Of a stretch of 64,000 nucleotides of DNA, positions 41,117 to 59,344 are shown in pieces (position 1 is the stretch's first letter; each line of letters opens with the position of its first letter). Position numbers and translations under genes: made by a program. Source of the DNA: Candidatus Moanibacter sp. (GTDB lineage Bacteria > Verrucomicrobiota > Verrucomicrobiia > Opitutales > UBA2987). The stretch is taken from contig CBDCEW010000105.1 in assembly GCA_965215885.1 (NCBI GenBank), positions 160,001 through 224,000 on the forward strand. The letters run 5' to 3'. Under the pieces are notes generated by a model, which searched no databases, was not told the origin of the DNA, and saw only the letters and a list, made by a program, of their open reading frames with translations.

Positions 41117-41270
41117 CTTAGGAACGAACCGAATTATAGATTCGCGTACCAATAATCCGATGTCATAATTCGAGACTTCCGGAACATCAGAGAAAATTCC
41201 GAAAGTGGGTTAATATCATGTTGAGAAATCCGAAATTGAATTCTAGGCTACAGTTTTTTCAGAATTCATC

Positions 41271-41591
41271 ATGCAATATCACCAATTCCATCTAAAGAAA
41301 AGTAAACGGGAATTAATAATTACGATTAACGAATCAAAATTCGACGCTTCCGCGGTAGGCGAGTTTAGGAACCGTCTGTCCGAGGCTTGGGAGGAGGTGA
41401 TATCGGGGGTGACAATCGATTTTTCCAAGGTCGATTTTATCGACTCCTCAGGGATCGGAGCGCTCTTGAGCGTTCAGAAGCGGCTCAAGCAGAGAGACGA
41501 ACCCGTTACCATATTGAACGCCAAGCCACCCGTCATTAGCGTAATAGAACTGCTCCGCCTGCATCGAGTATTTACTCTGCGTTCTCAATAA
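41271..41591 (+). CDS. STAS anti-sigma factor antagonist
   Basis: IDFSKVDFIDSSGIGALL with the phospho-acceptor Ser. Confidence 0.9.
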   Translation: MQYHQFHLKKSKRELIITINESKFDASAVGEFRNRLSEAWEEVISGVTIDFSKVDFIDSSGIGALLSVQKRLKQRDEPVTILNAKPPVISVIELLRLHRVFTLRSQ

Positions 41592-42735
41592 CCGTTATTC
41601 CGGGGGGCAAATCGTATTTCCACTCCTGAAGGGAGAAAGCCCACCGTTCCCTGATCGCTTCGATCTGCGGCTTTCCAATCGTGTAGACATTCTTTCTATA
41701 CGCGCGTTCCGATTCCACGTAAGCGCTGATCTGAGAGAGCCCACCCATCTTCTTCTCCAGGCGGAAGTGGTCATAGATTTCTTCGACCGCATCCATCGGA
41801 TTTCTTTCTAACGACTCGTATTTCAATTCGAAAAAACAATCCGTCGACAGTGAATTGCGATCTCTCAGAAACCTCCGCATGATTAATTCGTAATTCTCAA
41901 GCGTGATTTCTTCAAAATCCAAGTCCTTCCAGTTCTGCCACGCAAAGGCCGGCATTGTCCTTCCAAAGTGTCTAACCGTCGAACAAAATACCTCGAAAGG
42001 GTTGCGAACAATGTGGATGAATTTCGCTTTAGGGAATACTGATCTCAACCAGGGAATGCGCGCTGTCGCGGCGGGATTCTTCAAGAGCAGGCGCTTTCCC
42101 CTGTTTTCTTCACTGTAGGCCAGCTTCTTCAGAAGGTAGTTGTAGGTGTAGGCGAATTCTTCCAATTCCTCCTTTCCAACCCCTTCCAACAATATCGATC
42201 GCCTGTATATCTCCCGAAAGTGGCGAGGGAAGTAATAACAGTAGTAATAGCACAGCAGACCCATATTCCCGAGGGCCATTTCTTCTTCTTGTGGAGAATC
42301 GAGTGAGAGCCGCACATTGTCCATTCCTCGAGTTTCAGGCAGAATTTTCTCGATTATTGGCGGAGCGATTTTGAGCTTTCCGAGAAAATCCCAGGGCATA
42401 GCTGTCTGCAGAAACGAAATCCAGGCGAACTGTGGATCCTGGCTGAGGAGATTATGTAGATAAGTCGTGCCGCTTCGCCAATGTCCAACGATAAAAATCG
42501 GATCCTTCTCAATCTCGGTCTCCTCGATGCCACGATCGTGCATGAGCCGTTCCCACCGATAGAAGGGAAAACGCAGAATCACGGCCATTACCGCCGCCAG
42601 TCGGACCCAACGCGACTCTCCTTGAAAGGGACCATACCGGCGCTTCGTTTGAAGCAACGTGAGCAGATTGCTCCCCCCTAACGGGTGCAGTAGCGGTCTC
42701 TTAAATTCCTCTGGAGTAGATCGCGAGGACCTCAC
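41572..42735 (-). CDS. PAPS-dependent sulfotransferase (Sulfotransfer_3 / Stf3-like)
   Basis: FIVGHWRSGTTYLH (5'-PSB loop), PQEEE, LLKNP and HIVRNP; GTG start overlaps the PKS TAG by 1 nt. Confidence 0.9.
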   Translation of the reverse strand: MRSSRSTPEEFKRPLLHPLGGSNLLTLLQTKRRYGPFQGESRWVRLAAVMAVILRFPFYRWERLMHDRGIEETEIEKDPIFIVGHWRSGTTYLHNLLSQDPQFAWISFLQTAMPWDFLGKLKIAPPIIEKILPETRGMDNVRLSLDSPQEEEMALGNMGLLCYYYCYYFPRHFREIYRRSILLEGVGKEELEEFAYTYNYLLKKLAYSEENRGKRLLLKNPAATARIPWLRSVFPKAKFIHIVRNPFEVFCSTVRHFGRTMPAFAWQNWKDLDFEEITLENYELIMRRFLRDRNSLSTDCFFELKYESLERNPMDAVEEIYDHFRLEKKMGGLSQISAYVESERAYRKNVYTIGKPQIEAIRERWAFSLQEWKYDLPPGITVIENAE

Positions 42736-45700
42736 TACACAGTACTCGCATGTGCAGCATCGGAAGACTCGGCTTCTTTGAATCGAGCGACCGTCTCAGG
42801 CGAAATAAAATAGTTTTCACACTGGGGTCTCGCCGCCTCGAATTCGAGCGATTGTAACAATCGGTAATGAGCTAATGAATCTCTTACCTTGACAGGTCCC
42901 AAGGTGGGCCTGATACCGGAACTCTTACCGGTTAACAAACTGGAGAGTATGCATCCGGTAATCTCTCTCGAGTCTCGCCCTGCCAGCGTCAGAAGATGAT
43001 CGCCTCCCAATTCCTCTAAAAGGCTGGCAGTACCATTGGGTAGAAAGATCGTCTCGCTGATCTCTTCGTTTAACCGCAACAAACCTCCCGTCGTGAATAA
43101 TATATCATGTTGCGTTTCAAGGCGCTTAATGGCGTCGAAAACCCGAAAACAGGGCGGAAAGGAATCATCCACGATGAGAGAACCGGGTTGCAGTCGGTTC
43201 ACATCCAGTATTCCCGGTACATTCGTAGCGCCGAGAATGAAAGTAGCTTCATAAACCGCGTCCGGGAGCTTCCCTCGGCTCGTCTCGAGGCGCACGTCGC
43301 CCCGGAAATTCACTTCCTCAGCTAGCTTTCGGCGAATCTCATCTAGTGCCTCAGCCTTTTGATATAGATCACACAGTATCAACTCACGCGGATGCGGCAA
43401 AACCTCCAACATCAACCGAAGGGACGCATAACCAATCGATCCCAAGCCTACGATCGCGACACTTTCCTTCGAGAAATCCCGTTCCGTCTGGCTCAATAGT
43501 CCCTCTATCGACTTTATTATCGTGGCCGTTGTAGTGGCATGGCCTGTCGTGATCTCCGGCATATCGTCACGCTTGTCGATCCACTCAACTATCTTCCTGC
43601 CGTAATCCGTGGCAGATGGAATCAGGCCCGTCAGTGAGACTTGTGCGGCGCCCATCTTTGCCGCCACTTCCATCGCTCCTACAACATGCTCAACCAGGGC
43701 ATCCTGATCTTTGTAGAGTTCCGCCCCCAGCCGCGGCAGCATTATCAAGCCTATGCGTCCGAACGAAGTCTCGTAGAGATTTGACAAAAACGGCTGACCG
43801 CGGAGCCAATTGTGAACGATATCCTCCTTAGACAGGCCGGTCAGCGCTAAAAAGGCATCCGGAATATAGGCCAGTGCAACCGCATCCGCTCGGGGCAGAT
43901 CTTCCTGGTTGCCACTAACATTATCGATTATCTCCACCGTGAGGTAACTCGAGTCGAGCTCCTCATTCACAAAACCGTTGGCAGCTTGTCCGCTTTCCAA
44001 CATCCCATCCGCCTGGCTTTCCTGCAGGCACGGTACCGTATCCAGATAGCGTGCCAGGTTCTCTACCGTGGGATTCTGTAGAAAGACGTCCACCGGTAAC
44101 CGCCGGTTAAACGCCTGGGAAACTTCCGTGAGTATCTGCACGGCAAGCAATGAGTCTCCTCCGAGGTCAAAAAAGTTATCACGAATACCAATTCTATCGC
44201 TCTTAAAAACGATGTTTAGTATATCGACCAGGATCTTCTCGCTGGGAGTTCTCGGCGAAAGATATTCTGCTTGAATGTCGCTTCGCTGCAATGTCGGAGC
44301 CGGCAACTTGAGCCGATCGACTTTTCTGTTCGGGGTCATCGGGTATTCGTCCAACAGCACGTAGGTGCCTGGTCGCATGTACTCTGGCATCCGCTCCATC
44401 ATATAAGAGCGCAAGACGCCGACAATCCCATCATACTCATCTTCCGGTATGATATAAGCTGCCAATCCTTCACTCGGCAGGTCGCTCCGTTTGATTACGA
44501 TTGCCTGCTTCACGTAAGGATGACTCTTCAGGTGCTCCTCGATATCCTCCAATTCGATCCGATATCCGCGAAGTTTAATCTGGGAATCGTTGCGACCCAG
44601 AAAGTCAATCTTTCCATCGGGTCTGAAACGGGCCATATCGCCCGTTTCGTAGAGGCGCTCGCTCCTGCCGTTGGGAAGCGTGATCTGCAGGAACTTCTCC
44701 GCTGTCATTTCAGGTTGGTTATGGTAGCCACGCGCCAAACCGTCACCGCCGATGTAAAAATTACCCACAAAACCTGGCGGCAAGGCTTTGTGATTATCGT
44801 CCAGAATATAAACCGTCGTGTTGGCAATGGGCCGCCCAATGGACACAGTTCCCCCGCCCGTGGTTACCCTGTCAACAGTCGACCAGATGGTTGTCTCGGT
44901 AGGCCCGTAGAGGTTCCAGACCGCACGAGTAGAGGGTAAAAGCGCTTCCGCCAACTCCCGAGAAAGAGTCTCACCTCCGCAAAAGACGCGCAGGTCGTGT
45001 TTACCCTCCCATCCGGAATCCAGTAACATCTGCCAGGTTGCGGGAGTCGCCTGCATTGTAGTTACCGCATATTCATCCAGAAGAACGGATAGCCTTCGGC
45101 CATCGGAGGCTTCTTGCCTCGTAGCGATGACAACGCGCGCCTCAGATATAAGGGGAAGGAGTAACTCCAGTATCGAAATATCAAAGGAGAGAGTCGTCAC
45201 CGCCAGAAGTGTGTCGTCTGCGCTTAACCCCGGTAATTCTCTCATCGAGGTGAGAAAATTAACCACTGCCCGGTGGGGAATCTCGACACCCTTGGGCCTT
45301 CCCGTAGAGCCGGATGTATAGATTATGTAAGCGAGCGACTCTGAGGTCTGTCCACTAACGACCGGCGCTACCGCCGATTCGCCGCAACTCTCTATCAGCA
45401 CGGTTGTCCAATTGCCTTTGGGAAGATTCCTCAACAACTGATTCTGCGTAAGGACGACGCCGGGCTTGGCGTCATCCAGCATCTGCTCGAGCCGAAAGCT
45501 GGGAAAGGCGGGATCCAGAGGCACAAAACATCCACCCGATTTCAATATACCGAGAATACCGATCAGCATATCGAGCGATCGGTCCACCAGAATACCGACC
45601 GGCATATCCAACCCGATTCCGGCAGTCCGAAGTTTTTCCGCCACGGCGTTGGCACGCCTGTTCAATTCCAAATAGGTTAATGATTTGCCCGCACAGGTAA

Positions 45701-48700
45701 CCGCAACGGCTTCAGGCGTACGGGCGGCATGTTCGCTCACCAACTGATGCACGCAGGTTTCCTCCGGGCAATCGGAAGCGGTCGCATTCCACTCCTCGAG
45801 AATCTTCCTTTCCTCCTCCTGGGAGAGAAACGAAATCTCCGATATCCGCTTTCCGGGATGGACTACGAGATCCTCAAGCACCTGCTCGTAGAGCATATTG
45901 AGGCGGCCGATTGTTTCCGGTTCAAAAAGGTCGCGATTGTATTGCCAACAACCGTAAATGTTTCCATCCGCTTCTTCGACGACCAGCGAAATCTCGAATT
46001 GCGCCTGGCGCAAATTCAGGTCGATCGACTCAACGGAGATATCCCTGACCTTGAAATTGTGGCCACCTTGTCCAATAAGAAACACCGCGATACCCTGGTC
46101 GTCCACACCTGGAATTCGCTCCATCGAAAACGTTACCTGGAAAATCGGAGAACGGCTCGAATCGCGACGCACCTGCAAATGGTCGACCAACATGGATAGG
46201 GGATATTCCTGATTCTCAAATGCTCCGATTCGGGTATCGCTGACGCGGTCGAGGTAATCTGTAAAGACGGGGTCATCGTCGACCTTACTTCGCAGGGCGA
46301 CAGGATTGATGAAGTAGCCTACCAGATCATGAAATTCCTTGCGACGTCGGCCGTAGAAAGGACTACCGATGAGGAGATCATCCTGATTGCAGTAGCGATG
46401 CAAGAGGACCTGAAAAGCGGATAGCAACAGGGTGTAAAGCGTCACATTGCGCTCCGAGGCGAGCCCTTCTACCCTTTCGGTCAGATTCTCGTTCAGCTTG
46501 AAACCATGGGTCGCTCCGTTGAAACTCTGTATGGGCGGTCTAGGATGATCGGTCGGCAGATCGAGCACAAATTGCGCATCACTCATCTGATTCACCCAGT
46601 ATTTGAGCATACCCTCGCTCTCCGGCCCATCCAACAAATCCTGTTGCCACTTTACATAGTCGGCGTAGCGACATTTAAGTGGCGCAAAATCCGGTTCGAA
46701 TCCCGCCTTAATCGAGAAATAACTCTCGATTAAGTCATTCATGATCAGAACGATCGACCAGGCATCGGAAACGATATGATGCATGCAAAGCAAGGCCACG
46801 TGGGCGTTGTCTGCGGTGCGGAATAATTCGAGCCGAACTACCGGACCGCGCTCAAGATCAAAAGGTCGGTTGGTGTGCTCGATCAGCAACTCCTTGATCT
46901 CATCCCTGCTCAATTCAGTGGCATCATGTTCCCGAAAATCAATACTCCGCCCATCGTGAGTCACTTGTATCAGCTGTCCGTTTTCAGCCTTTATGGTGAC
47001 ATCGAGCATCGGATGCCGGCGGAAGAGCGCCGCGAAGGCCTTTTTCATCACCGGTATGTCGACATAGGGCGAGATGCTGGAACTGAAGACCAGATTATAG
47101 GCCGAACTCTCAGGAGCCAAACGGTTAAGAAACCAGAGCGCCCGCTGCCCGCGCGAAAGTGGAAATTCCTTTATCGCCGGATCCGATATCATGAGTGCAC
47201 TGCCCACAGCCCCATCCTCAGCGATCTCCCCAAGATCTCCTTCCCCGGACTGCAGCAACATTTCGAGCACCGATACCGCCAGTTGGGATATGTTCGGGCC
47301 CTGCAAAAACTGGCCCATTTGCAGATTAATGCCCAGGCTCGACTCCAGCCGATTCATCAATTCGATAGCCATCAGGGAATCGAGACCGATCTGAGTAAGA
47401 GGCGTCTCCCGCTCGACTTTGGTAGAACTCGTCCCAAACACCTGCGCAACCTCTTCACATATAAAATCCTCCAGAAGCTTTAGACGCTCTTCCGGTGGAG
47501 CGCCAATTATCATCGGCCGAATCGAACCGGCTTTGGCACTCGCCGAATCAGCGGCTTCCTTCTGAGCAACCAGTGAAAAAGTGGGAGATTTCGCCGTCGT
47601 CGGGTTAATTTTGAAGAGCAAATTCCAGTCAATCCTGGCAGCGCCAAGTTGAACCGGATCTCTCCCCAGGATCTCGGCAAAGATCTCCAGTGCTTCCTCC
47701 ACCTGGAAGGTCTTCATTCCCACTTTATCGAGGTATTGTGCCGTCATCTCATCACGCTCCACGAAACCCGCCCCCAAGATAGCGCCCCAGTTCAAGGTAA
47801 GCGCGGGAAGCCCCAGCGAGCGCCGGTAGTGAGCGAGCGCGTCGAGAAATAGATTGCCCGCGCAGTAGTTACTCTGGCGAGTCGCGCCGATCATCGACGA
47901 TATCGATGAGAGACAGACAAAGTGATCCAGGGGCATATCTTTTGTCTCAAGATGCAAGTTCCATGCCCCCAGCATTTTCGGCCTGAGCACCCTGTTAAAA
48001 CGCTCCCTGTCAAGGTCCTTAATGAAATCGTCATCGAGAACCATGGCACCGTGTATAACACCCTTTAAGGGAGGTAAACTGGACTTAATCTTCTCGACTA
48101 TCCGTGATACGTCCTCTTCCTTCGTAAAATCCCCTCTGGCATCGATAACAGCGACGCCTCCCGCGATCATCTCTTCGATGTCTCGCTTTTCTCCTTCCGT
48201 CTTTGCTCCACTGCGACTTCCAAGGACCAACGTTCCCGCTCCCATTCGAGCCATCCACTTTGCCACTTCCAGGCCAAACCCACTCGCCCCTCCCGTAATC
48301 AGATAGGAAGCATCCTTCTTAAATAGTCTCTTCGAGTCTGAAGGAGGACCGACCGGAATCGTGTCCAGTTGAAAAGAGAGGACGTTCTTTCCGATGTGCT
48401 TCGCCTGCGCCATGTAGCGAAACGCTTTCCCTGCCTCCGTAACTGGGAAAGATTTGAGGGGTAAGGGAGGCAACCTGTTTTCCGCAAACTCTGCCGAAAG
48501 CTCCATCAGGAGGGAGGCGATGTAGTGCGGCCTTTCCTCAACGTGTTGAGCCAGATCGATCGCAAAGTAGGAAATGTTGTTCTTGAAAGGTTCCAACCCG
48601 ATCATTGTGTTCTGGTAAATGTCTACTTTCCCTATTTCCAGAAAGCGGCCGTAGGGAGCCAGCACGGAGATACTCTTTCGTATCCAATCGCCTGCCAGCG

Positions 48701-51700
48701 AGTTGAGCACCACATCAACTCCGCCACCTTCAGTGATTTTCATGACCTCATCCGCAAAATCGAGGCTACGGGAATCCATCACATGGGAGACGCCCATATC
48801 CCGGAGGAACTCTCGCTTTTCCGGAGTGCCGGCGGTGGTAAATATCTCCGCTCCGATTCCCTTTGCGATGCGTATCGCCGCCTGTCCGACGCCCCCGGAC
48901 CCTGCGTGAATGAGGATTGTCTCCCCTTTCTGCAGATGTCCAAGATGGTTCAAAGCGTAATAGGCGGTAAGGTATACGGTAGGCAGCGTGGCCGCTTCCT
49001 CGAAACTCATGTGGCCCGGTTTACGAAAGATCATATTTCGATCAATCGTCACATGGGTCCTGAAACAGTAGGGGGCCATACCTGCCACTTCGTCACCTAC
49101 CTTCAGGTCCTCTACACCCTTACCTAATCTTAATATCGTGCCGGAAAAGTCATCTCCCAACCATCTCAGGTCTTTGCTGTTGCCCGGGTAGATTCCAAGA
49201 GCCTTCATCACATCGCGGAAATTAATCCCGCCCGCCGCAACTCTGATCTCCACTTCCCCTTCCTCCGGCGAACGCCTTGTCGTCTCGTTGAGTGACAGAT
49301 TGTCAAGTATTCCAGGCGTTGGTATCTCGAGACGGTAAGGAGTCACAGTATCTCCATTCACCGCGTTGTGCAGGCGAAGGGGGAGATCCTCATGGGGAAC
49401 ACTCAAGACCCGATGCACAAAACGCTTCCCCGACCGCAAAGCCAATTCAAATTCCTCATCATTGAGGATAATCTCCTCGAACAAGCCCCCTACCTCCTCG
49501 ACTTCCACCTCCGGATCCAAATCGATAACCGTCCAGCAGAATTCCTTATACTCATTGTTAGCCACCCGCAGGAATCCGGATAGTGGTGTGGATGCGATCG
49601 ATTGTAAGGTCTCATCTCCATTCAGGTATTGCGCACCCCGAGTAACCATCCATACCCTCGGTGCGGGATCGAGTGCGGCGCTTCCCAATGCCTTGGCCAG
49701 CAATAGGGTATTCAATACTCCCGTTTTTTGCGCCTCATCCAGGGAGACAGGATCCGTATCCGCTGAATTGCAGTGGTCGACACTCAAGCAATGGATGATA
49801 CCTCGAAACGTGAGGGACAGTTCTCCCACCGCCTCGATCAGCTTTGCAATGTCCTCGTGGCTTCCCGGCTGAAATTCAAAGTTCCATTCGTCCAATTGGG
49901 CAAATTCATCGCCCACCTCAGCAACCAGGCAAGATCGCTTCTCTTCGCGCAATCGTTCCGCCACCGCCCTTCCCGTGCCCTTATGGTCGGCGATTACCAG
50001 ATAGAGCTCGTTAATCTCTCCTTCTTTCTTCGGTTCCACCGCCTTCCTATCCAACTCCGGACCCTTAGCCAGAAAGACTGTTTGAGAGGTCTCTTCCTCT
50101 CTGGGGCCATCGACAAAGGATGCGACGTTTTCAAATCCGCTCTCATTGAGCAGCTTCTCCCACTTCTCACGTGGAAGTAATGCCGAATGTGGCCGCAAGT
50201 CGGTATCGCTGTACTGCCACCAACCCTTGAGTTGTCCAAAGACCATATCCAGGCCCAGCCGCGGCGACGTGACCTCCAGGAATATCAGCAAGCCGTTTGA
50301 TGCCAACAGATCTTGCACCACGCCGAGCGTTTTCCTCAGTTCCGAAGTTGCGTGTAGAACGTCCGTTGCCAGAATGAGATCAAATGAATGCAGTTTAATC
50401 CCCTGCTCGACGGGGTCCTTCTCAACATCGAGAAGGCGGTATTCTACAAAATCGTACTCGCTGAACTCCTTTCTTGCATCATTCAAAAACAGCGGTCCAA
50501 TGTCCGTGAAACTATATTCACTACGATCTTTCGGCAGTATCGGGAGCACGCTCCTCGTCAATGAACCGGTTCCCGCTCCTACTTCTAGAACGCGTAAGGT
50601 ACGTCGCTGCGGCAGGTCTTCAATAGCCCGCAAGACCGCCATCTGGATCAGTTCATTGTAAGCAAGAAAATCGGCGCCCTCTTTGTAAAAATCTGAGAAT
50701 CGCTCTACAGAGCCTCCCGGGAATATCACTTCCATTGGATCAACCTTCCCCGAGAGAATCTCTCCCAATCTCGCACCGCACACCCTCTCCAGATGTAGAT
50801 CAGAGGCAAAATTCGGATACTTCTCCTCCAATTCATCGATCAGCGGCAGGGCTTCCGCGGGCTTCGGCGCCTTTAACACTTCCCATTCTTCATCGGCCAC
50901 CGTCTTGAGAACGTCCTCTTTATCCAAAGCGACCAGGAACGAACGCGTCAACCGCTCATGCTGATCAACGATTCCCAGTTCCCCAACAAAATCACTGAAC
51001 CGAAATCTCTCTCCCGGAGTCGGGCGCCAACCCAGTTCGCAAAACGCATTTATGATAAATAGGACACAAATGTCTTCCACGGAGGGCATAAACTCGTTAA
51101 AGTAGCGCTCCAGATCATACCGTTTGTAAACTTCTCCTACACTCGGACTCAGCCCTCTCAATATCTCTTCAGTTCCCGCGAATTTCGCGGAGCCCGAAGC
51201 CCCACTCCCTCGCAAATGTCTCTCCTTCCACTCTAACTGGTAAAAGCAGCGAAATATGTCACTTTCGGACTTGGTGTCACTTTGTTCCACGCGTTCCACG
51301 CGGAATCCGAGAATGTCTGCCACACGCTCACCCCGATCATTGAATACCTCCACATTCGCTTCCATCACCTCACCATCATCGAGGTAGAGATCGGCGTGGC
51401 CCCAGAGCCGCGGCTCGATGGGTCCATACATGCGAACACGCTTTATCGTGGCGGGCAGGTAGAAGTTATCCTTCGCCAAACGCCCCTCCGGCGCTACCTG
51501 AGCGCCTTTCACGCATTGAAAACAGGCATCGAGCACAGCGGGGTGAAAAAGGTACTCTTCGAGACCCTCGAGAACTTCCTCCGACGCCACAATTTCCCCA
51601 ATTGTCTCACCCGGCTTAACCCAGATATTCTGCAAGAGCTGGAAATTGGGACCAAACTGGTATCCCGCATCTTTGTAATCGGAATAGTATTGATCGTGAT

Positions 51701-54700
51701 CGAGCTTCTCCTCCAAGTTATCCCGAATCGCGGCCAGGTCGACCGAATCGCGTTCTTGCGGAGTAAGTATCTGGAGCCGGCCATGCGCGTTTAAATCCCA
51801 ATCTGTCCTCGATAGCGTCGAACTGTAAATCCTGAATGAACCGTCCGCTTCATCAAAGAGAACTCGCAGCGTCGGCACGTTTCGATCCGAATAAAAGAGC
51901 GCCTTTGTTGTCTTAATATCCTCGACGACATAGTGCTCATCGGGAAAGAGTTCCCTCGCCACCGCAAATCCGATCTCGGCGAATCCGGAGGCCGGAAAAA
52001 TCATCGAGTCCCAGAATCGGTGATCGTCGAGATAGCTGAAAGCCCTCGGGTCCAATTCAAATTCCCAGGAAGGGCTCGGTGAACTCACTCTCACTCCGAG
52101 AAGCGGATGAACAATTGGCGAGAGTCGCTGGGCCTTCGATTCTTCCGATTCGAGCCAGAAACCCTCATGTTTCCACGGATAGGAAGGAAGACGAACGAAT
52201 CGACTGTCAGCGTCCTGCAGGGCTTCCCATTTAATCGGATAACCCATCGCATAGAGCCGACCGAGAGTCTCCAGCATATAGGATTGTTCCGGTTGTCTTC
52301 TTCTCAAGGACCCCAGGGTCGTGCCGGTCTTGCCGGCCTGCGTCAGGCACTCGTTAATCGATGCGGAATGGATGGGACTTGGCCCCAATTCGAGAAAGAG
52401 CTCATCTCCCCCTTCGATAATATTGTATACCGCATCGCTGAATCTGACGGGCTCCCGGACATTCTTCCACCAATACGAGGCGTCCAGTTTCTCGCCTCCC
52501 AACTTATCACCGGCGACGGTCGATATGAAAGGTACGTCTCCTGGTTTTGGCTCAATGTCCGCAAGCGATTCCAGAAGTTCATCCTTAATCGGATTCATCT
52601 GGTGGGTATGAAAAGCATAGTCAATCTGTAGCCAGCGAACGAAAACCTTCTGTTCCTCAAGAGGCTCGATGACCGTTTCAATAACTTCGGTGTCACCTGC
52701 CAAAGTAACCATGGCCGGTCCATTGATAGCAGCAATCGCGACCTGGTTCTCAAATCCCCGTATCGCTTCCTTCGCTTTTTCCTGCGTCAATCCCACCGCC
52801 GCCATCCGACCCGCTCCGCCCGTCTTTTCCTGCAAACGGCTGCGGTGGAAAATCACTTTCACAGCATCCTCTAGACTGTAAATACCAGCCCAATAGGCTG
52901 CCGCCACTTCACCCACACTGTGTCCCACCACTCTGACGGGTTCGACGCCGCGTGAACGCCACAATTCGGCCAGTCCCACCTGCACGGCAAATATGGCCGG
53001 TTGCGCAACATAAGTGCGATTTATGTTTGAATCGACCTTTCCTCGGGACATCTCCTCAAGCAGTGACCAACCGCCCAAAGCGTAGATCAGCTTATCGATC
53101 TGTTTGATGGCCTTGCGAAATACCGGTTCCGTTCTCAGGAGTTCCTGTCCCATTCCCCACCATTGGGGTCCCTGTCCGCTGAATACAAAAACAGATTTTG
53201 GTTCCTTGGCAGCGGCGCGATCGGACACCAAACCCGGCACCCGATTCTCTTCTCTTTCCCAGGCTTGCAGTTTGTCGGCCAGTTCCTTGGAAGTGACCCC
53301 AACGACTGCCAGCCGATGCTCATGGTGACTCTTACGCAGGGCCGCCGTGGAAGCTAAGTCGGGAAGGGAAACCCTACCATTCTGGGAGCCATTCTCGAGC
53401 ATATCGCGGAAGGCACCGACATAAACTTTCAGCGATTCCTCGGTATTGGCGGAGACCGGTAGCAGCACTGGCCCCTCCCATGAGCGTTTTTTTCGCTTGG
53501 GCTCAATCTTCTTCTTCTGCGGAGGCGCTTCTTCCAATACAATATGGGCATTTGTTCCACCGAAACCGAAGGAATTTACCGCCACCACAGCGGATTCTCC
53601 ATCGCACGGCAACGGCTCCGCCTCAGTGGGAACCCTTAATCGAAGCTCATCGAATTGTATGTTTGGGTTCGGTGTCTCGAAGTTCAGATTCGGTGGAATT
53701 GTCCGGTGCTTCAGGACAAGCGCCGCTTTTATCAAACCCGCCACCCCCGATCCGGATTCAAGATGGCCGATATTCGTCTTGACGGAACCGATGACACACT
53801 CCTCTCCCTTCCCTCGACCCCTGCAGAGGATGTTTCCGAGAGCCTGCAATTCGATCGGATCGCCTACCGGAGTGCCCGTTCCATGAGCTTCCATATAGCT
53901 TACCCTTTTCGGTGTTATGCCCGCCTGTCGGTATGCTTCTTCCAACATATCCGATTGCGATTTCACTCCCGGAACGGTCATTGCGTTCGTGCGGCCATCC
54001 TGGTTTACCACAGCTGCCCGAATAAGCGCATAGATGGGTAACCCTTCCTCCTGCGCCTTCCTAAGCGGCCTGATAACTAAAATCCCAGCGCCTTCTCCAC
54101 GTACGTAGCCATTGGCGCGAGCGTCGAAGGCATAACATTGCCCGTCCGGCGATAGCATGGAGGCCTTGCTGAACCCGATCGATGAATCTGGCGTCAAGAG
54201 GGCGTTGACTCCTCCCGCCAGCGCTGACTCACATTGACCATCCCATATGCTTTGACACGCCAGATTTATCGCTACCAAAGCCGATGAACAAGCCGTGTCG
54301 ACCGATAAGCTCGGGCCCTTAAAATTGTAGAGATAGGAGATTCGGTTGGAGGCGATGCTCAGTGTGCTCCCGCTATTCGTGTGCACATCCACTTCGGCAG
54401 GCCCCTTCATCTGAATATTGGCGTAGTCGTTACTGGCTATTCCAACGAATACACCTGTATTCGTCCCTGACATCCGATCCGGTGCCAGCCCACCATCTTC
54501 CAACGCCTCCCAAGTCACCTCCAGCAACCATCGCTGCTGGGGATCCATGCGCAGTGCTTCCCTCGGGGAAATCCCGAAAAATCGGGCATCAAATTTATCG
54601 ATTTCGTCGACAAATCCGCCCCAGCGCGTTATCATCTTGCCCGGTATCTGGGGATTCGGGTCGTAGTATCGATCGACATTCCAGCGGCCCTCCGGAACTT

Positions 54701-54821
54701 CCGTTATGCCACTTCTACCCTCAATCAGTAATTTCCAGAATGACTCCGGATCATATACTCCTCCCGGAAACCGACAGCCTATTCCAACTATTGCGAGAGT
54801 TTCCCTCCTCTTTCCACTCAT
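42735..54821 (-). CDS. Hybrid PKS-NRPS: KS-AT-DH-cMT-ER-KR-ACP-C-A-PCP plus terminal Rossmann (acyl-ACP reductase-like) domain
   Basis: DTACSS/HGTGT/NIGHLE, GHSVG+YAFH, HPAVLD, LEVGAGTG, IHAGSGGVG, ITGGASGFG+LDD+YCAGN, GLDSL, HHIVSD, YTSGSTGRPKG, GGDSL, VGLGSIG. Confidence 0.93.
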   Translation of the reverse strand: MSGKRRETLAIVGIGCRFPGGVYDPESFWKLLIEGRSGITEVPEGRWNVDRYYDPNPQIPGKMITRWGGFVDEIDKFDARFFGISPREALRMDPQQRWLLEVTWEALEDGGLAPDRMSGTNTGVFVGIASNDYANIQMKGPAEVDVHTNSGSTLSIASNRISYLYNFKGPSLSVDTACSSALVAINLACQSIWDGQCESALAGGVNALLTPDSSIGFSKASMLSPDGQCYAFDARANGYVRGEGAGILVIRPLRKAQEEGLPIYALIRAAVVNQDGRTNAMTVPGVKSQSDMLEEAYRQAGITPKRVSYMEAHGTGTPVGDPIELQALGNILCRGRGKGEECVIGSVKTNIGHLESGSGVAGLIKAALVLKHRTIPPNLNFETPNPNIQFDELRLRVPTEAEPLPCDGESAVVAVNSFGFGGTNAHIVLEEAPPQKKKIEPKRKKRSWEGPVLLPVSANTEESLKVYVGAFRDMLENGSQNGRVSLPDLASTAALRKSHHEHRLAVVGVTSKELADKLQAWEREENRVPGLVSDRAAAKEPKSVFVFSGQGPQWWGMGQELLRTEPVFRKAIKQIDKLIYALGGWSLLEEMSRGKVDSNINRTYVAQPAIFAVQVGLAELWRSRGVEPVRVVGHSVGEVAAAYWAGIYSLEDAVKVIFHRSRLQEKTGGAGRMAAVGLTQEKAKEAIRGFENQVAIAAINGPAMVTLAGDTEVIETVIEPLEEQKVFVRWLQIDYAFHTHQMNPIKDELLESLADIEPKPGDVPFISTVAGDKLGGEKLDASYWWKNVREPVRFSDAVYNIIEGGDELFLELGPSPIHSASINECLTQAGKTGTTLGSLRRRQPEQSYMLETLGRLYAMGYPIKWEALQDADSRFVRLPSYPWKHEGFWLESEESKAQRLSPIVHPLLGVRVSSPSPSWEFELDPRAFSYLDDHRFWDSMIFPASGFAEIGFAVARELFPDEHYVVEDIKTTKALFYSDRNVPTLRVLFDEADGSFRIYSSTLSRTDWDLNAHGRLQILTPQERDSVDLAAIRDNLEEKLDHDQYYSDYKDAGYQFGPNFQLLQNIWVKPGETIGEIVASEEVLEGLEEYLFHPAVLDACFQCVKGAQVAPEGRLAKDNFYLPATIKRVRMYGPIEPRLWGHADLYLDDGEVMEANVEVFNDRGERVADILGFRVERVEQSDTKSESDIFRCFYQLEWKERHLRGSGASGSAKFAGTEEILRGLSPSVGEVYKRYDLERYFNEFMPSVEDICVLFIINAFCELGWRPTPGERFRFSDFVGELGIVDQHERLTRSFLVALDKEDVLKTVADEEWEVLKAPKPAEALPLIDELEEKYPNFASDLHLERVCGARLGEILSGKVDPMEVIFPGGSVERFSDFYKEGADFLAYNELIQMAVLRAIEDLPQRRTLRVLEVGAGTGSLTRSVLPILPKDRSEYSFTDIGPLFLNDARKEFSEYDFVEYRLLDVEKDPVEQGIKLHSFDLILATDVLHATSELRKTLGVVQDLLASNGLLIFLEVTSPRLGLDMVFGQLKGWWQYSDTDLRPHSALLPREKWEKLLNESGFENVASFVDGPREEETSQTVFLAKGPELDRKAVEPKKEGEINELYLVIADHKGTGRAVAERLREEKRSCLVAEVGDEFAQLDEWNFEFQPGSHEDIAKLIEAVGELSLTFRGIIHCLSVDHCNSADTDPVSLDEAQKTGVLNTLLLAKALGSAALDPAPRVWMVTRGAQYLNGDETLQSIASTPLSGFLRVANNEYKEFCWTVIDLDPEVEVEEVGGLFEEIILNDEEFELALRSGKRFVHRVLSVPHEDLPLRLHNAVNGDTVTPYRLEIPTPGILDNLSLNETTRRSPEEGEVEIRVAAGGINFRDVMKALGIYPGNSKDLRWLGDDFSGTILRLGKGVEDLKVGDEVAGMAPYCFRTHVTIDRNMIFRKPGHMSFEEAATLPTVYLTAYYALNHLGHLQKGETILIHAGSGGVGQAAIRIAKGIGAEIFTTAGTPEKREFLRDMGVSHVMDSRSLDFADEVMKITEGGGVDVVLNSLAGDWIRKSISVLAPYGRFLEIGKVDIYQNTMIGLEPFKNNISYFAIDLAQHVEERPHYIASLLMELSAEFAENRLPPLPLKSFPVTEAGKAFRYMAQAKHIGKNVLSFQLDTIPVGPPSDSKRLFKKDASYLITGGASGFGLEVAKWMARMGAGTLVLGSRSGAKTEGEKRDIEEMIAGGVAVIDARGDFTKEEDVSRIVEKIKSSLPPLKGVIHGAMVLDDDFIKDLDRERFNRVLRPKMLGAWNLHLETKDMPLDHFVCLSSISSMIGATRQSNYCAGNLFLDALAHYRRSLGLPALTLNWGAILGAGFVERDEMTAQYLDKVGMKTFQVEEALEIFAEILGRDPVQLGAARIDWNLLFKINPTTAKSPTFSLVAQKEAADSASAKAGSIRPMIIGAPPEERLKLLEDFICEEVAQVFGTSSTKVERETPLTQIGLDSLMAIELMNRLESSLGINLQMGQFLQGPNISQLAVSVLEMLLQSGEGDLGEIAEDGAVGSALMISDPAIKEFPLSRGQRALWFLNRLAPESSAYNLVFSSSISPYVDIPVMKKAFAALFRRHPMLDVTIKAENGQLIQVTHDGRSIDFREHDATELSRDEIKELLIEHTNRPFDLERGPVVRLELFRTADNAHVALLCMHHIVSDAWSIVLIMNDLIESYFSIKAGFEPDFAPLKCRYADYVKWQQDLLDGPESEGMLKYWVNQMSDAQFVLDLPTDHPRPPIQSFNGATHGFKLNENLTERVEGLASERNVTLYTLLLSAFQVLLHRYCNQDDLLIGSPFYGRRRKEFHDLVGYFINPVALRSKVDDDPVFTDYLDRVSDTRIGAFENQEYPLSMLVDHLQVRRDSSRSPIFQVTFSMERIPGVDDQGIAVFLIGQGGHNFKVRDISVESIDLNLRQAQFEISLVVEEADGNIYGCWQYNRDLFEPETIGRLNMLYEQVLEDLVVHPGKRISEISFLSQEEERKILEEWNATASDCPEETCVHQLVSEHAARTPEAVAVTCAGKSLTYLELNRRANAVAEKLRTAGIGLDMPVGILVDRSLDMLIGILGILKSGGCFVPLDPAFPSFRLEQMLDDAKPGVVLTQNQLLRNLPKGNWTTVLIESCGESAVAPVVSGQTSESLAYIIYTSGSTGRPKGVEIPHRAVVNFLTSMRELPGLSADDTLLAVTTLSFDISILELLLPLISEARVVIATRQEASDGRRLSVLLDEYAVTTMQATPATWQMLLDSGWEGKHDLRVFCGGETLSRELAEALLPSTRAVWNLYGPTETTIWSTVDRVTTGGGTVSIGRPIANTTVYILDDNHKALPPGFVGNFYIGGDGLARGYHNQPEMTAEKFLQITLPNGRSERLYETGDMARFRPDGKIDFLGRNDSQIKLRGYRIELEDIEEHLKSHPYVKQAIVIKRSDLPSEGLAAYIIPEDEYDGIVGVLRSYMMERMPEYMRPGTYVLLDEYPMTPNRKVDRLKLPAPTLQRSDIQAEYLSPRTPSEKILVDILNIVFKSDRIGIRDNFFDLGGDSLLAVQILTEVSQAFNRRLPVDVFLQNPTVENLARYLDTVPCLQESQADGMLESGQAANGFVNEELDSSYLTVEIIDNVSGNQEDLPRADAVALAYIPDAFLALTGLSKEDIVHNWLRGQPFLSNLYETSFGRIGLIMLPRLGAELYKDQDALVEHVVGAMEVAAKMGAAQVSLTGLIPSATDYGRKIVEWIDKRDDMPEITTGHATTTATIIKSIEGLLSQTERDFSKESVAIVGLGSIGYASLRLMLEVLPHPRELILCDLYQKAEALDEIRRKLAEEVNFRGDVRLETSRGKLPDAVYEATFILGATNVPGILDVNRLQPGSLIVDDSFPPCFRVFDAIKRLETQHDILFTTGGLLRLNEEISETIFLPNGTASLLEELGGDHLLTLAGRDSREITGCILSSLLTGKSSGIRPTLGPVKVRDSLAHYRLLQSLEFEAARPQCENYFISPETVARFKEAESSDAAHASTV

Positions 54822-54994
54822 CGGACACTCCTCCCGTTAAACTGGGCACTGGCCTCACTCGTTCGAAAAGCGCAAAGAGAAGATCTTTTCATTCTCAAAC
54901 TTACCAGTTCTCCCACTAAAGAATTCACTTAATGGATAAGGTAGCCTTCATTGTCTAGACAAAAGATGGCGATGGAAAACAGGCTTAAAGAAGA

Positions 54995-55023
54995 ATTATA
55001 GGTTTTCTCAAGTCCTTCTCCAA
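54995..55023 (-). promoter_or_regulatory. Candidate sigma70 promoter for the PKS-NRPS operon
   Basis: TTGGAG-17-TATAAT on the minus strand; GGAGGAG RBS before the ATG at 54821. Confidence 0.4.
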
Positions 55024-55436: not shown

Positions 55437-58400
55437 ATGAAATTAACAGAAATCGCCATCAAGGAAAACAGGCTTACTTACGCTCTGATTCTGTTTGTCG
55501 TAATCGGCGGCCTTATCGCATTCTTCAACCTTCCCCGTTTCGAAGATCCAAAGATTCCCTTTCGCTACGCCTTCATTACTACACTGTATCCGGGTGCTTC
55601 GGTGGAAAGGATGGAGACCCTCGTCACGGAGAGAATCGAAGAGATCCTGAGCGAAATCCCCGAGATCGAATTCATAAACGGCGAATCACGAAAAAACGCT
55701 TCCGGTATTGTCGTGAAGATTCAGGACCGTTACACGCAAGTAAAACCTGTCTGGGATCGCATTCGCCGAAAACTCGATCGTCTCAAGAACACGCTGCCCG
55801 AAGGAGTGCAGGGCCCATTCTTCAATGATGAATATGGAGAGGTATTCGGCACGATGATTGCCGTCACCGGAAAAGATCTGACCTTCCCTGAGATCAGGCG
55901 AGTTACCCTGGCGCTTCGTAAGAAGCTTCTTCGGCTTGAGGAAGTCTCCAAAGTCATCACCCTGGGAGATCAAGAAGAGCAAATCGTCGTCCAGTACGAC
56001 GATGCCGAGATGGCCGAAATCGGCCTCTCTCCTCTCCACCTCAAATCGTTTCTCGAGGCACAAAACGTTATTGCTCCGGGCGGAAGCATCCGACAGGGAG
56101 ACACGCGCGTCGCCGTGGAATCTCGAAACGACCTGAATTCGGTCGAGGCCGTTGAGGATCTCCAGGTTTCCCTTCCCGAAGAAGAGGATATCTTCGCTCT
56201 CGGGGAGCTGCTGGATATTAGTCGCGAGATACGCCACCCCCCACTGAGTATTCTGAGATCATCCGGGGAGCGCGGTATCGGACTCGCCGTTTCTTTGCGC
56301 CAGGGCGGAAATATCGAGAAACTGGGTCGCGACGTCCGCAGGGTTGTTGACCACTACATGGCTGAAGTGTCCAGCGACGTTGAGTTTCAATTTGTCGCCT
56401 TTGAACCGGAGCGTGTCACCTACCGAGTCAACCAGTTTTTTATAGATCTCCTGCAGAGCCTCGTCATTGTAATGGTTATATTGATGTTGGCGCTCGGCCT
56501 GAGAACCGGGTCAATCGTTGCCAGCATGATGCCACTCGTCATCCTCGCCACTCTCGCTGTCATGCTTGGCCTCAAACTCAATATCAATCTCGTCGCTCTG
56601 GCTGCTTTCATCGTTGTTCTCGGTATCATGGTCGACAACCATATTGTGATATCTGAACGCATTCTGACCTTGCGTGAGAAAGGTGAATCTTCCCACCGTG
56701 CCGCCATCGCGGCAACAAGCCAGCTCTACGCACCTCTCCTCACCGCCACCGCCACTACGATTTCGGGGTTCTTGCCAATTTACCTCGCCCAGTCTTCCAG
56801 CGGTGAATACGTCACTCCACTTTTCGAGGTAGTCACTATCGCCCTTATCTGCTCCACCTTCTTCGCTTTCACGGTTACTCCTCTTCTCTCCCTCCGCCTC
56901 TTCAAGATCGCTCCCCAGTCCGCAGCTTCAACCTTCTGGAAGCTGCTCTATCGTTTCTATCGCAATATTCTCCTCGCCCTCATGCCGCGGCCGCTCCTCG
57001 CGCTCTCCGTTCTCTTTCTCCTGTTCCTGCTTTCCCTCTATACCTTCCGTTTTGTCCCCACCATCTTCTTCCCTCCCTCGGACCGGCCTGTTTTTACACT
57101 CGAACTGGAATTTCCCTCCGGCACTGTCATCGAGAAAACGGAAGAAGCTGCCTCCAAGATCGAATCCTATGTCATGGAGAACCTCGTTTCGGATTCTCCA
57201 TCAGAGTCCCGTATTCTAAACTGGGTCGCATTTGTTGGACGAAACGCGCCTCGCTTTGTCCTGAACCACCGCACCCGCGAATACAGTCCGGAGTATACCT
57301 ATTTTCTCTTTAATATCACCTCCCCAAAATTGATTCCCTTCTTCCGCGGGAAGCTGGAAGAATTCTGCCACGCCACTTTCCCTCAGGCAACGGTTCGTAT
57401 CCAACCCATCGAAGCCGGTCCAGCCGTTGGTTTTCCCATTATAGTCCATGCCGCCGGCGATGATATCGATGGGATTTTTCGAATAGCCGATGAAGTTGCC
57501 AACTACATGAGCGGGATTCCCGGACTCTACAACATCAGCAACAATTGGGGACGGTCCGTTAAAAAGCTTCACGTCGTAATCGATGAAGATAAAGCCGCCC
57601 TCGCCGCGGTTACTCGTGGCGAAATCGCTCTAACTCTCCAGACTTTCCTTACCGGTATCCCTGCAACCGATTTACGAATCGGAAGTAACGTAATTCCCGT
57701 CTTCGTAAAAAGCACCGTCAATGGGATGAATGATGTAGAAGAGATTAAATCGCTTCACGTCTTCTCGCGCCTCAAGGAGACGACTGTTCCCCTCGGTGAG
57801 ATCGCTGAAGTTGTGAAAGTCTTCGAGTCGGCCAACATTATTAGGAGGGACTTTCAGCGTACTGTCACGGTAGGGGCCGATGTCAGGGAAGGAACTAACT
57901 ATAAAAAGGTCGACGACCAGATCGAAGCCTTCCTCTCCCGCAATCGTTCCCGCTGGGGAAACGATTACCACGTGCGATTAGGGGGACAGGGATCGGAATC
58001 CGCCAAAGCCAATAAATCGATCCTTGTTAACCTCCCTTGGGCAATTTTCATCATATTGCTCCTCCTTATCAGGCAGACACGCTCCATTCGTAGAACCTTC
58101 ATTATCATGTGCGCCGTACCCATGGGCGTCATCGGGGTGGTTTTTGGCCTCCTCGCCACCAGGCAACCATTTGGATTTACCACCCTCATCGGTATAGTAT
58201 CGCTCACCGGTATTGTCGTTAACAACGCCATCATCCTCATTGATCGCATTCGCCTCAATGAAAATGCCGCCCAGTTTACTCGTCAGGAATGCATAATCGA
58301 AGCGGCTCTCAATCGCCTTCGTCCCATCCTTCTTACCACCCTTACCACTGTTGGAGGAGTTTTTCCCCTCTACCTGAGAGCGAATCCAACCTGGCAGGGC

Positions 58401-58454
58401 ATGGCCGTGGCCATTATTTTCGGTCTCTCTTTCGCCACTCTTCTCGTCCTCTGA
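55437..58454 (+). CDS. AcrB/AcrD/AcrF-family RND efflux permease, last TM helix interrupted
   Basis: LPRFEDP, YPGAS, GIMVDN, GIVVNNAIILID and RLRPILLT; in-frame continuation FMVPLLYALLF to 58547 after the TGA. Confidence 0.88.
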   Translation: MKLTEIAIKENRLTYALILFVVIGGLIAFFNLPRFEDPKIPFRYAFITTLYPGASVERMETLVTERIEEILSEIPEIEFINGESRKNASGIVVKIQDRYTQVKPVWDRIRRKLDRLKNTLPEGVQGPFFNDEYGEVFGTMIAVTGKDLTFPEIRRVTLALRKKLLRLEEVSKVITLGDQEEQIVVQYDDAEMAEIGLSPLHLKSFLEAQNVIAPGGSIRQGDTRVAVESRNDLNSVEAVEDLQVSLPEEEDIFALGELLDISREIRHPPLSILRSSGERGIGLAVSLRQGGNIEKLGRDVRRVVDHYMAEVSSDVEFQFVAFEPERVTYRVNQFFIDLLQSLVIVMVILMLALGLRTGSIVASMMPLVILATLAVMLGLKLNINLVALAAFIVVLGIMVDNHIVISERILTLREKGESSHRAAIAATSQLYAPLLTATATTISGFLPIYLAQSSSGEYVTPLFEVVTIALICSTFFAFTVTPLLSLRLFKIAPQSAASTFWKLLYRFYRNILLALMPRPLLALSVLFLLFLLSLYTFRFVPTIFFPPSDRPVFTLELEFPSGTVIEKTEEAASKIESYVMENLVSDSPSESRILNWVAFVGRNAPRFVLNHRTREYSPEYTYFLFNITSPKLIPFFRGKLEEFCHATFPQATVRIQPIEAGPAVGFPIIVHAAGDDIDGIFRIADEVANYMSGIPGLYNISNNWGRSVKKLHVVIDEDKAALAAVTRGEIALTLQTFLTGIPATDLRIGSNVIPVFVKSTVNGMNDVEEIKSLHVFSRLKETTVPLGEIAEVVKVFESANIIRRDFQRTVTVGADVREGTNYKKVDDQIEAFLSRNRSRWGNDYHVRLGGQGSESAKANKSILVNLPWAIFIILLLLIRQTRSIRRTFIIMCAVPMGVIGVVFGLLATRQPFGFTTLIGIVSLTGIVVNNAIILIDRIRLNENAAQFTRQECIIEAALNRLRPILLTTLTTVGGVFPLYLRANPTWQGMAVAIIFGLSFATLLVL

Positions 58455-58582
58455 ATCCCGCTCCTCCACAGCCGGAGGGGCTGGTTTATGGTGCCCCTCT
58501 TATACGCCCTCCTCTTTCGCGTGCCCTTCAAGGCTTACAAGCCATAACCGTCTGCTCTCCAGCGCAGCGGCACTCACTTCGC

Positions 58583-59330: not shown

Positions 59331-59344
59331 ACCAGCTTGACGAT

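Follow-up and report, generated by a model that had tools for sequence, protein, structure and literature searches.

How does a single bacterial protein with one polyketide module and one peptide module release its product, and why does a sulfotransferase gene overlap the gene that encodes it? The question is raised by a locus of Candidatus Moanibacter sp. (Verrucomicrobiota; Opitutales), found in a stretch of 64,000 nucleotides (positions 160,001 to 224,000 of contig CBDCEW010000105.1, assembly GCA_965215885.1) which is called the window below. The locus contains a hybrid polyketide synthase (PKS) and non-ribosomal peptide synthetase (NRPS) gene, here called the megasynthase gene, a sulfotransferase gene, and a divergent gene for an RND (resistance-nodulation-division) permease. 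The cluster is an uncharacterised hybrid assembly line. Its last domain belongs to the putative terminal amidation domain (TAD) family, and the line comes with a sulfotransferase of its own and with accessory genes of lipid type. The overall reading, held tentatively, is that this one-protein assembly line makes an acyl-glycine, likely released as an amide, which is sulfated to an anionic lipid. A sequence-only reading of the locus had predicted a sulfated lipid derived from N-acyl-glycine, released reductively and exported by the RND pump. The features on which the argument turns are listed first, in window coordinates.

42735..54821, reverse strand: megasynthase gene, KS-AT-DH-cMT-ER-KR-ACP-C-A-T-TAD, 4028 amino acids (open reading frame and Pfam)
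42759..43898, reverse strand: TAD-family release domain, residues 3642-4021 (GLGSIG at 3792, LCD at 3816, VDDSFPP at 3884, Cys3957)
41572..42735, reverse strand: sulfotransferase gene (Sulfotransfer_3), 387 amino acids (open reading frame and Pfam)

The last 431 residues of the megasynthase match no Pfam family at E<=10, NAD_binding_4 included. NCBIfam gives sub-threshold matches only to the terminal domain: the PigE N-region at 1.2e-14, and AcACP_reductase, the cyanobacterial acyl-ACP reductase, at 3.5e-4. A phmmer search of solved structures with the terminal domain (391 residues) finds 9e4s and 9e4x at E ~1e-89 (1.1e-89 for 9e4s), and the match spans query residues 5-384. These PDB entries are titled 'TAD from Carmabin Biosynthetic Pathway'. 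An AlphaFold model of the domain (pLDDT 88.7, built on an 11-sequence alignment) is matched by Foldseek to 9e4s_A with a TM of 0.92 and an rmsd of 1.9; the next match is the acyl-ACP reductase (AAR) 6jzu, with a TM of 0.64. Cys3957 lies in an ITGC motif which aligns with the IMGC of 9e4s, and it is invariant in 11 of 11 alignment rows; the motif [ILMV]T[GSA]C is found in 79 of 80 related loci. GLGSIG, LCD and VDDS are invariant or retained in the same 11 rows. The TAD loop reads VDDSFPP, with the Asp retained and a Phe in place of the Gly of Asp-Asp-Ser-Gly-cisPro. By sequence, modelled fold and cysteine, the terminal ~390 residues are assigned to the putative TAD family. The sequence-only reading had placed a thioester reductase (R) domain at this position. 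No Pfam match supports one, and the fold is that of TAD and AAR, not that of a short-chain dehydrogenase/reductase (SDR). Because the terminal domain is not a canonical R domain, reductive release can no longer be taken as given.

The structural study of the TAD family (10.1101/2024.10.28.620694) is drawn on here for the part of its text that was available. It describes NAD(H) bound beside an invariant cysteine, Cys2238 of CarI. The loop Asp is near nicotinamide N1 and is linked to NAD+ binding. Primary amides at the C-terminus are the only product correlation given for the family to date. One of the similarity clusters is 'mostly comprised of Verrucomicrobiota' and has Tyr replacing the loop Asp; in the text available, no gene consistently co-occurs with TAD within ten genes. 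The modules treated are those of the carmabin, vatiamide E-F and hectoramide B pathways of marine cyanobacteria (CarI, VatR and HcaD; PDB 9e4s, 9e4u, 9e4x, 9e50 and 9e56). Like the megasynthase, they end a C-A-T module with a domain of ~400 residues. The CarI domain and this one agree in the invariant Cys, the Rossmann motif and the Asp-Asp-Ser loop, and here too the domain comes after a cMT-containing reducing PKS module of cyanobacterial type. The two systems differ in that the megasynthase is one protein with one PKS and one NRPS module, in that its amino acid is glycine, and in that a sulfotransferase (and in relatives a GT21-family glycosyltransferase) goes with the enzyme. The loops differ as well: DDSFP here, DDSGP in the CarI type, and DYS in most Verrucomicrobiales members.

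TAD-like domains are not always terminal. In some NRPSs (P0066, P0081, P0090, P0095, P0096 and P0100) the domain is followed by ~445 residues with reductase families of the NAD_binding_4 type, and in P0113, P0114 and P0121 by ~300 residues with a thioesterase. Such internal domains, recognised from sequence, are hard to square with a simple release role.

The remainder of the megasynthase is a conventional assembly line, and its domains are arranged as follows (all on the reverse strand).

53310..54800: ketosynthase (KS) with C-terminal extension, residues 8-504 (Pfam; DTACSS, EAHGTGT, NIGHLE)
52263..53192: acyltransferase (AT), residues 544-853 (Pfam; GHSVGE, YAFH)
51282..52109: dehydratase (DH), residues 905-1180 (Pfam; HPLLG/LDDHRF/LDACFQ)
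50121..51140: C-methyltransferase (cMT) region, residues 1228-1567 (Pfam; LEVGAGTG)
48378..49262: enoylreductase (ER), residues 1854-2148 (Pfam; HAGSGGVG)
47778..48311: ketoreductase (KR), residues 2171-2348 (Pfam; GGASGFG)
47256..47474: acyl carrier protein (ACP), residues 2450-2522 (Pfam; GLDSLM)
45798..47171: condensation (C) domain, residues 2551-3008 (Pfam, 332 bits; HHIVSD)
44322..45734: adenylation (A) domain, residues 3030-3500 (Pfam AMP-binding, 266 bits; code DILQFGLIWK)
44043..44234: peptidyl carrier (T) domain, residues 3530-3593 (Pfam PP-binding; GGDSLL)

This Pfam order, KS, AT, DH, cMT, ER, KR, ACP, C, A and T on one protein of 4028 residues, is the one that had been predicted, with all seven PKS domains above their cut-offs. 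The gene also lacks a loading module and a thioesterase, as the sequence-only reading had noted, and the ER motif that looked intact in it (IHAGSGGVG) is found at residue 1972. The motif of the DH is HxxxDxxxxP instead of HxxxGxxxxP. Read with the textbook roles of such motifs, the active sites are intact in every domain. The AT presumably takes malonyl units. The seven domains and their motifs are those of a fully reducing, C-methylating type I PKS module.

Fungal highly reducing PKS-NRPS hybrids (PsoA; LovB-type) have the same order from KS to T on one protein without a loading module, but they end in an R or Dieckmann cyclase domain or in a thioesterase, whereas the megasynthase ends in a TAD. 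Among solved chains the KS-AT region is closest to CurL (5e-226), followed by mycocerosic acid synthase and DEBS, all from bacterial modular PKSs; LovB (1e-147) and PsoA (1e-140) are more distant. The fungal likeness proposed earlier thus holds for the order of domains and not for the KS-AT. Because the KS-AT is nearer to bacterial modular PKSs, the fungal-looking layout is convergence or at most analogy. The iterative PKS-NRPSs of bacterial polycyclic tetramate macrolactams also have this domain order on one protein.

The amino acid can be read from the A domain. Its ten code positions, placed by core-motif anchoring with GrsA numbering, read DILQFGLIWK. The pattern DILQ[FL]G[LM][IV]WK is present in 71 of 72 proteins of 3900-4110 amino acids, this megasynthase counted; the exception is a Myxococcota protein. 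The code differs at 2 of 10 positions from DILQLGMIWK, which is among the glycine codes listed in the available part of PMC12283262. By its code the A domain is glycine-like, and this is conserved across the family; both observations support the glycine of the sequence-only reading.

The search with the terminal domain returned 197 proteins. Approximately 70 of the 120 listed are ~4000 amino acids long and have the same Pfam set, and the named ~4000-residue proteins among the matches listed belong to Verrucomicrobiales or Verrucomicrobiota. The domain also ends plain PKSs and NRPSs of cyanobacteria, Myxococcota and others. A scan of one genome per species turned up 434 relatives, and 80 loci were retained. 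Seven are from Opitutales metagenome-assembled genomes and are the nearest relatives (57-73% identity, VDDSFP loop), 68 are of Verrucomicrobiales type (VDYSFP), and five are NRPS contexts of other phyla (VDDSGP). By its nearest relatives, the present genome would most likely be placed in Opitutales. A further sample comprised 201 Verrucomicrobiales genomes around one carrier, drawn by the tool and not picked by feature; a TAD profile matched 42 of these. Judged by these matches, the megasynthase family is widespread in Verrucomicrobiota. The same search found no match in 400 genomes sampled around the present genome within its phylum; set against 42 of 201, this suggests that the carrier clade is under-represented in the sample of the phylum.

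The small protein is a PAPS-type sulfotransferase by family match and motifs. Pfam gives 115 bits for Sulfotransfer_3 (cut-off 27) and 36 bits for Sulfotransfer_1. The motifs are GHWRSGTT at residue 84 and RNPFEVFCS at residue 244; in sulfotransferases these are the 5'-phosphosulfate and 3'-phosphate motifs. GHWRSGTT and RNPxxVxxS are kept in 15 of 15 aligned homologues. The best PDB matches are 2zq5 and 2z6v (E ~1e-7), both labelled 'putative uncharacterized protein', which we take to be mycobacterial Stf enzymes; the CurM sulfotransferase is among the weak matches (E 0.19). Supply of PAPS and activation of carriers are provided for in this genome by one APS kinase gene and two phosphopantetheinyl transferase (PPTase) genes. 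The stop codon of the megasynthase gene (TAG) and the start codon of the sulfotransferase gene (GTG) have one base in common, at 42735, which is the TAGTG overlap described earlier; from this layout the two genes are translationally coupled. The N-terminus is conserved from about residue 13 in the 15 homologues, and no later start keeps it, so the overlapping GTG is the likely start. A public gene call (P0124) begins later and has 338 amino acids.

Is the sulfotransferase part of the same system? By the terms of the sequence-only reading, homologues that usually lacked the sulfotransferase would refute it. At the level of the locus they do: it is present in the downstream flank in nine of the 80 loci (all seven from Opitutales, plus L012 and L052) and absent from 60 of the 69 loci with enough downstream flank, the other 11 flanks being too short. 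At the level of the genome they do not, because the orthologue sits elsewhere in the genome. Five of five Verrucomicrobiales genomes checked have a full-length orthologue, 41-45% identical, at another site. Among the 201 Verrucomicrobiales genomes, with orthologues defined by E<=1e-60, it is present in 40, exactly the TAD-positives with ~4000-residue frames, and in none of the 161 others, including all 159 TAD-negatives. The two TAD-positive genomes without it have weaker TAD matches in frames of ~4760 residues. In the 40 positives the sulfotransferase gene is directly downstream in G526, G455 and G467, divergent upstream in G506 and G522, and elsewhere in the rest. Only seven genomes of the 400-genome sample have sulfotransferase-like matches (34-39% identity); as TAD is absent there, this shows only that sulfotransferase orthologues are missing too.

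A neighbouring gene of the DUF2314 family served as a control. Of the 40 positive genomes 31 have it, as do 21 of the 161 others; as a control it is imperfect, since in several genomes it is only a few genes away from the megasynthase. Its distribution shows that the positives are mostly one clade, so the counts represent few evolutionary events. The match of the sulfotransferase is tighter than that of the control. Together with two gene orders and three adjacent arrangements, this supports a functional tie to the megasynthase. The pairing proposed by the sequence-only reading is therefore supported by adjacency and by co-occurrence across genomes.

Other genes travel with the system. GT21 is the ceramide-glucosyltransferase family in Pfam. 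Where the sulfotransferase gene is unlinked to the megasynthase, it overlaps or directly follows a GT21-family gene in six genomes, and in two genomes lpxB comes after it. Of the 40 positive Verrucomicrobiales genomes, 38 have a GT21 homologue, against two weak matches only among the 161 others. Five of five Opitutales relatives have one too, once immediately beside the RND gene. In one locus type a GT21 gene, a MacB/FtsX-type ABC exporter and a LolA-like gene adjoin the megasynthase. A GDSL-like gene of 736 amino acids follows the megasynthase in 35 of the 80 loci, in Verrucomicrobiales; it was looked for in the present genome and not found. The genes downstream of the sulfotransferase differ among Opitutales genomes. 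Neighbours of this kind suggest a (glyco)lipid of the envelope and not a classical secondary metabolite, and because GT21 belongs to the same set in relatives, the end product of the family is probably a membrane or surface (glyco)lipid and not a diffusible antibiotic.

There is a hint that the megasynthase is transcribed in nature. Nearly all bins of the megasynthase span, 42.4 to 55.1 kb, are covered by contigs from four RNA runs labelled metatranscriptomic (two studies), although such contigs record presence only, neither strand nor level. The runs were retrieved with the query 41572-46500, so cover of that span is selection. In the same runs 40.5-41.1 kb is bare, as is nearly all of 55.1-59.5 kb, which is no proof of silence there.

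The preferred pathway would run as follows. The reducing, C-methylating PKS module would build a reduced, methyl-branched acyl chain and pass it to the condensation domain, which would join it to glycine on the T domain. Cys3957 of the TAD would be positioned to take over the thioester, and the TAD would release the acyl-glycine, likely as the primary amide. The sulfotransferase would sulfate the product or an intermediate to give an anionic lipid. Amide release is a possible assignment, made by analogy with carmabin, vatiamide and hectoramide, and it should be held no more firmly than the pathway as a whole; a minor share of the likelihood goes to outcomes that are neither amide nor reductive release. 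Iterative use of the single module and one extension of a fatty acyl starter are equally possible beginnings of the chain. A relative of 4772 amino acids (P0099) has an AMP-ligase of the fatty acyl-AMP ligase (FAAL) type, a CMAS-type methyltransferase and a carrier ahead of the KS, and has no in-line cMT; in that variant, the loading region suggests a fatty-acyl starter with a single extension.

A FAAL acting in trans was considered as loader for the megasynthase. The sole candidate was a 964-residue fusion of carrier (ACP), AMP-ligase and PlsC-type acyltransferase, encoded on another contig at L099 (contig C44, 5375-10787), beside an Sfp-type PPTase and an SDR. Its AMP-ligase and the FAAL-type loading region of P0099 are 38% identical. 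Nothing ties the fusion to the cluster, and it was rejected as loader. L099 is a separate lipid-related system, and its PPTase could also serve the megasynthase.

Several points weigh against the preferred pathway. According to the available text of 10.1101/2024.10.28.620694, no TAD activity was reconstituted, that of CarI included, and no reaction with ammonia was seen. Among proteins related to the TAD fold, the closest whose activity is shown or supported are thioester reductases: AAR, and the N-domain of PigE (PMC8341465, available part). A fully reduced acyl-glycinamide has no hydroxyl for a sulfotransferase or GT21 enzyme, so the amide reading has to assume either that the PKS leaves a hydroxyl on the chain or that N-sulfonation takes place. 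Kinship inflates the co-occurrence counts, which overstate independence, and three TAD-less Opitutales genomes carry a sulfotransferase that is 35-38% identical. In the present genome (90.3% complete; 6.36 Mb in 105 contigs) GT21 was not found with three queries, nor was a remnant of it found within the window; as the RND frame is also truncated, the pathway may be incomplete here. The presence-only nature of the RNA contigs belongs on the same side.

The first alternative returns to reduction and is close to what the sequence-only reading proposed. The TAD would act like an acyl-ACP reductase and reduce the N-acyl-glycyl thioester to N-acyl-aminoacetaldehyde, which would go on to N-acyl-ethanolamine; its hydroxyl would then be sulfated and, in relatives, glycosylated by GT21. 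This is an unlikely route. TAD and the AAR/PigE enzymes have in common a two-subdomain fold (a macrodomain-like N-part and a dinucleotide-binding C-part), a catalytic Cys by the nicotinamide and a carrier-bound thioester substrate, and the NCBIfam matches given above are to just these reductases. The sulfotransferase and GT21, which are inherited together with the megasynthase, both require a hydroxyl acceptor, and an ethanolamine would supply it. The N-domain of PigE is argued to be a thioester reductase (PMC8341465, available part), and an aldehyde route is listed among possible TAD mechanisms in 10.1101/2024.10.28.620694. A parallel is found in the swf cluster of sponge symbionts, known here by the description in the available part of PMC3908369: SwfA is KS-AT-DH-ER-KR-ACP, SwfB is a thioester reductase fused to a sulfotransferase, SwfC is a radical SAM protein, and an alkyl sulfate is the proposed product. 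Both systems combine a mono-modular reducing PKS, a thioester-processing domain and a sulfotransferase, and a sulfated lipid is proposed for swf. However, swf lacks NRPS, cMT and TAD and has a conventional R domain fused to its sulfotransferase, whereas here the sulfotransferase is a separate protein to which no R domain is joined, and cMT, C, A, T and TAD are all part of the PKS protein.

Other observations favour the amide. The domain is closer in sequence to the CarI TAD (E 1e-89) than to PigE (8e-7) or AAR, where the likeness is at the level of fold (16-18% identity in Foldseek); AAR and PigE are free-standing or transaminase-fused reductases and not the ends of megasynthases. No second reductase is conserved next to the genes. 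To our knowledge, AAR-type enzymes carry out two-electron reduction only, which counts against the reductive route. This clade also retains the Asp linked to NAD+ binding, and the TAD-ending pathways of known product yield amides (10.1101/2024.10.28.620694, available text).

A more elaborate form of the reductive route is doubtful. In it the verrucomicrobial TAD is a reductive off-loader, and the megasynthase, the sulfotransferase, GT21 and an exporter of RND or MacB/LolA type together make a sulfated and, in most lineages, glycosylated N-acyl-ethanolamine, a 'mini-ceramide' that would be a new class of envelope lipid.

It is improbable that the sulfotransferase stands outside the pathway. Its substrate would then be a different molecule of the envelope, for example lipid A or a glycolipid, and both genes would be mere markers of the same clades. 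The genes are unlinked in most Verrucomicrobiales, sulfotransferase orthologues lie beside lpxB in two genomes and GT21 in six, the DUF2314 control shows strong clade structure, and the 35-38% identical sulfotransferases without TAD lie beside phospholipid or SDR genes. Set against this are the adjacency of the genes in three arrangements and two orders (one-base overlap here; downstream in 7/7 Opitutales, L012, L052, G526, G455 and G467; divergent in G506 and G522), and a distribution of 40/40 and 0/161 that is tighter than the 31/40 and 21/161 of the control. Sulfation as a leaving-group step, in which a chain hydroxyl would be sulfated for elimination or rearrangement in the style of CurM and olefin synthase and the final product would be free of sulfate, is very improbable: the KS-AT is nearest to that of the curacin PKS CurL and a precedent is described in PMC3908369 (available part), but the similarity to the CurM sulfotransferase (a weak PDB match at E 0.19) is not significant, the sulfotransferase is free-standing and often unlinked, no thioesterase is present to couple decarboxylation, and with DH and ER motifs intact no beta-hydroxyl is expected.

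The TAD-less relatives of the sulfotransferase have contexts of their own. At L091 (genome G066, 3771-9531) the sulfotransferase, of 37% identity, shares a gene string with a CDP-alcohol phosphatidyltransferase, CdsA, a PlsC-type acyltransferase, a hydrolase-methyltransferase fusion and a dual-specificity phosphatase. This string may be a different sulfated-lipid pathway. At L090 (G033) and L092 (G001) sulfotransferases of 35-38% identity are divergent from an extended SDR (Epimerase / NAD_binding_4), a pairing that recalls the reductase and sulfotransferase of SwfB.

The combination of a reducing PKS, a sulfotransferase and an RND-superfamily transporter for one envelope lipid is known from mycobacterial sulfolipid-1 (Pks2, Stf0 and MmpL8). 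Here there is no trehalose and there are no acyltransferases; a glycine module and a TAD are present, and the pump is AcrB-like and not of MmpL type. The sequence-only reading recognised no characterised cluster in this combination. This holds, as no paper naming the product or the pairing of this enzyme with a sulfotransferase was found in a literature search from whose coverage most subscription journals were missing.

The third gene of the locus lies on the other strand.

55437..58454, forward strand: RND (AcrB-family) permease open reading frame, 1005 amino acids, divergent from the megasynthase (open reading frame and Pfam)
54928..54969, no strand assigned: conserved intergenic patch of ~40 bases (comparison of the divergent intergenic region with Opitutales relatives)

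The permease matches ACR_tran with 445 bits over profile positions 3-1010 of 1021, and its NCBIfam scores are far below the subfamily cut-offs. The divergent RND gene had been predicted beside the megasynthase, and it is there. It had been given an end at 58547. The conserved C-terminus does continue in frame to that position, but an in-frame TGA at 58452-58454 intervenes, and 58547 is reached only by read-through. Alignment with four Opitutales orthologues places the TGA within ~10 inserted codons: the orthologues read ...LVL-(G/F)(I/A)-VP(L/A)LYA..., and the sequence here is, in the same frame, ...LVL-stop-IPLLHSRRGWFM-VPLLYA.... The frame thus ends ~20 residues before the aligned conserved C-terminus of the orthologues (VPLLYALLFRV...). 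The TGA may mark a genuine truncation or a site of read-through, or it may be an error in the assembly. No gene for a membrane-fusion or outer-membrane partner was found among the neighbours. An RND orthologue, 51-61% identical, is divergent upstream of the megasynthase in four of four assessable Opitutales genomes; in the 201 Verrucomicrobiales genomes the best identity is 33% and five genomes pass E 1e-150. Export by this pump is therefore backed by a link conserved in Opitutales relatives, but only there, and in the present genome the pump is cut by a stop.

The intergenic patch is 107-148 nt upstream of the megasynthase ATG and is 76-79% alike in three Opitutales relatives. It is reached by RNA-library contigs, and it is possibly a regulatory or leader sequence. 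An Rfam search of 54600-55600 matched no family. Small open reading frames at 55105-55440, 58289-58609 and 59157-59462 were dropped as genes, being not conserved in relatives; that at 58289-58609 is an out-of-frame reading of the RND C-terminal region.

On the far side of the sulfotransferase, between it and a set of radical-SAM and SNF genes, a regulatory set of partner-switching type occupies window positions 38584-41591. Its members are a STAS protein on the forward strand, an Hpt protein, a response regulator and a SpoIIE phosphatase with a fused, kinase-like HATPase_c_2 domain. At L002, the nearest relative, the sulfotransferase is followed directly by the radical-SAM and SNF genes, and the regulatory set looks like a lineage-specific insertion. 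Further away, an open reading frame of 460 amino acids at 24725-26107 contains a DruA-like region (Druantia protein DruA, E 1e-25) and DDE_Tnp_1 transposase domains. Another, of 160 amino acids at 34526-35008, has only a partial match to FGE-sulfatase (formylglycine-generating enzyme) and is possibly a gene fragment.

The TAD family is one whose structure has been solved and whose reaction has not been demonstrated, and for which the available text of 10.1101/2024.10.28.620694 reports no partner gene; in Verrucomicrobiota candidates for such partner genes appear. Because this family pairs a fixed acyl-glycine substrate, a TAD and tailoring enzymes that demand an acceptor, the chemistry of TAD is directly testable with two or three genes. 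If the link to the sulfotransferase is only phylogenetic, an ordinary orphan PKS-NRPS remains. If the doubtful mini-ceramide reading is true, roughly one in five Verrucomicrobiales species and a clade of Opitutales would have a bacterial counterpart of sulfatide, and TAD would have its first demonstrated chemistry. Verrucomicrobiota are known for the degradation of sulfated polymers. The system described here is found in ~20% of the sampled Verrucomicrobiales species and in a clade of Opitutales, it is seen in metatranscriptome assemblies, and it lies among envelope-lipid genes; it may specify an unrecognised sulfated lipid of the membrane or the cell surface.

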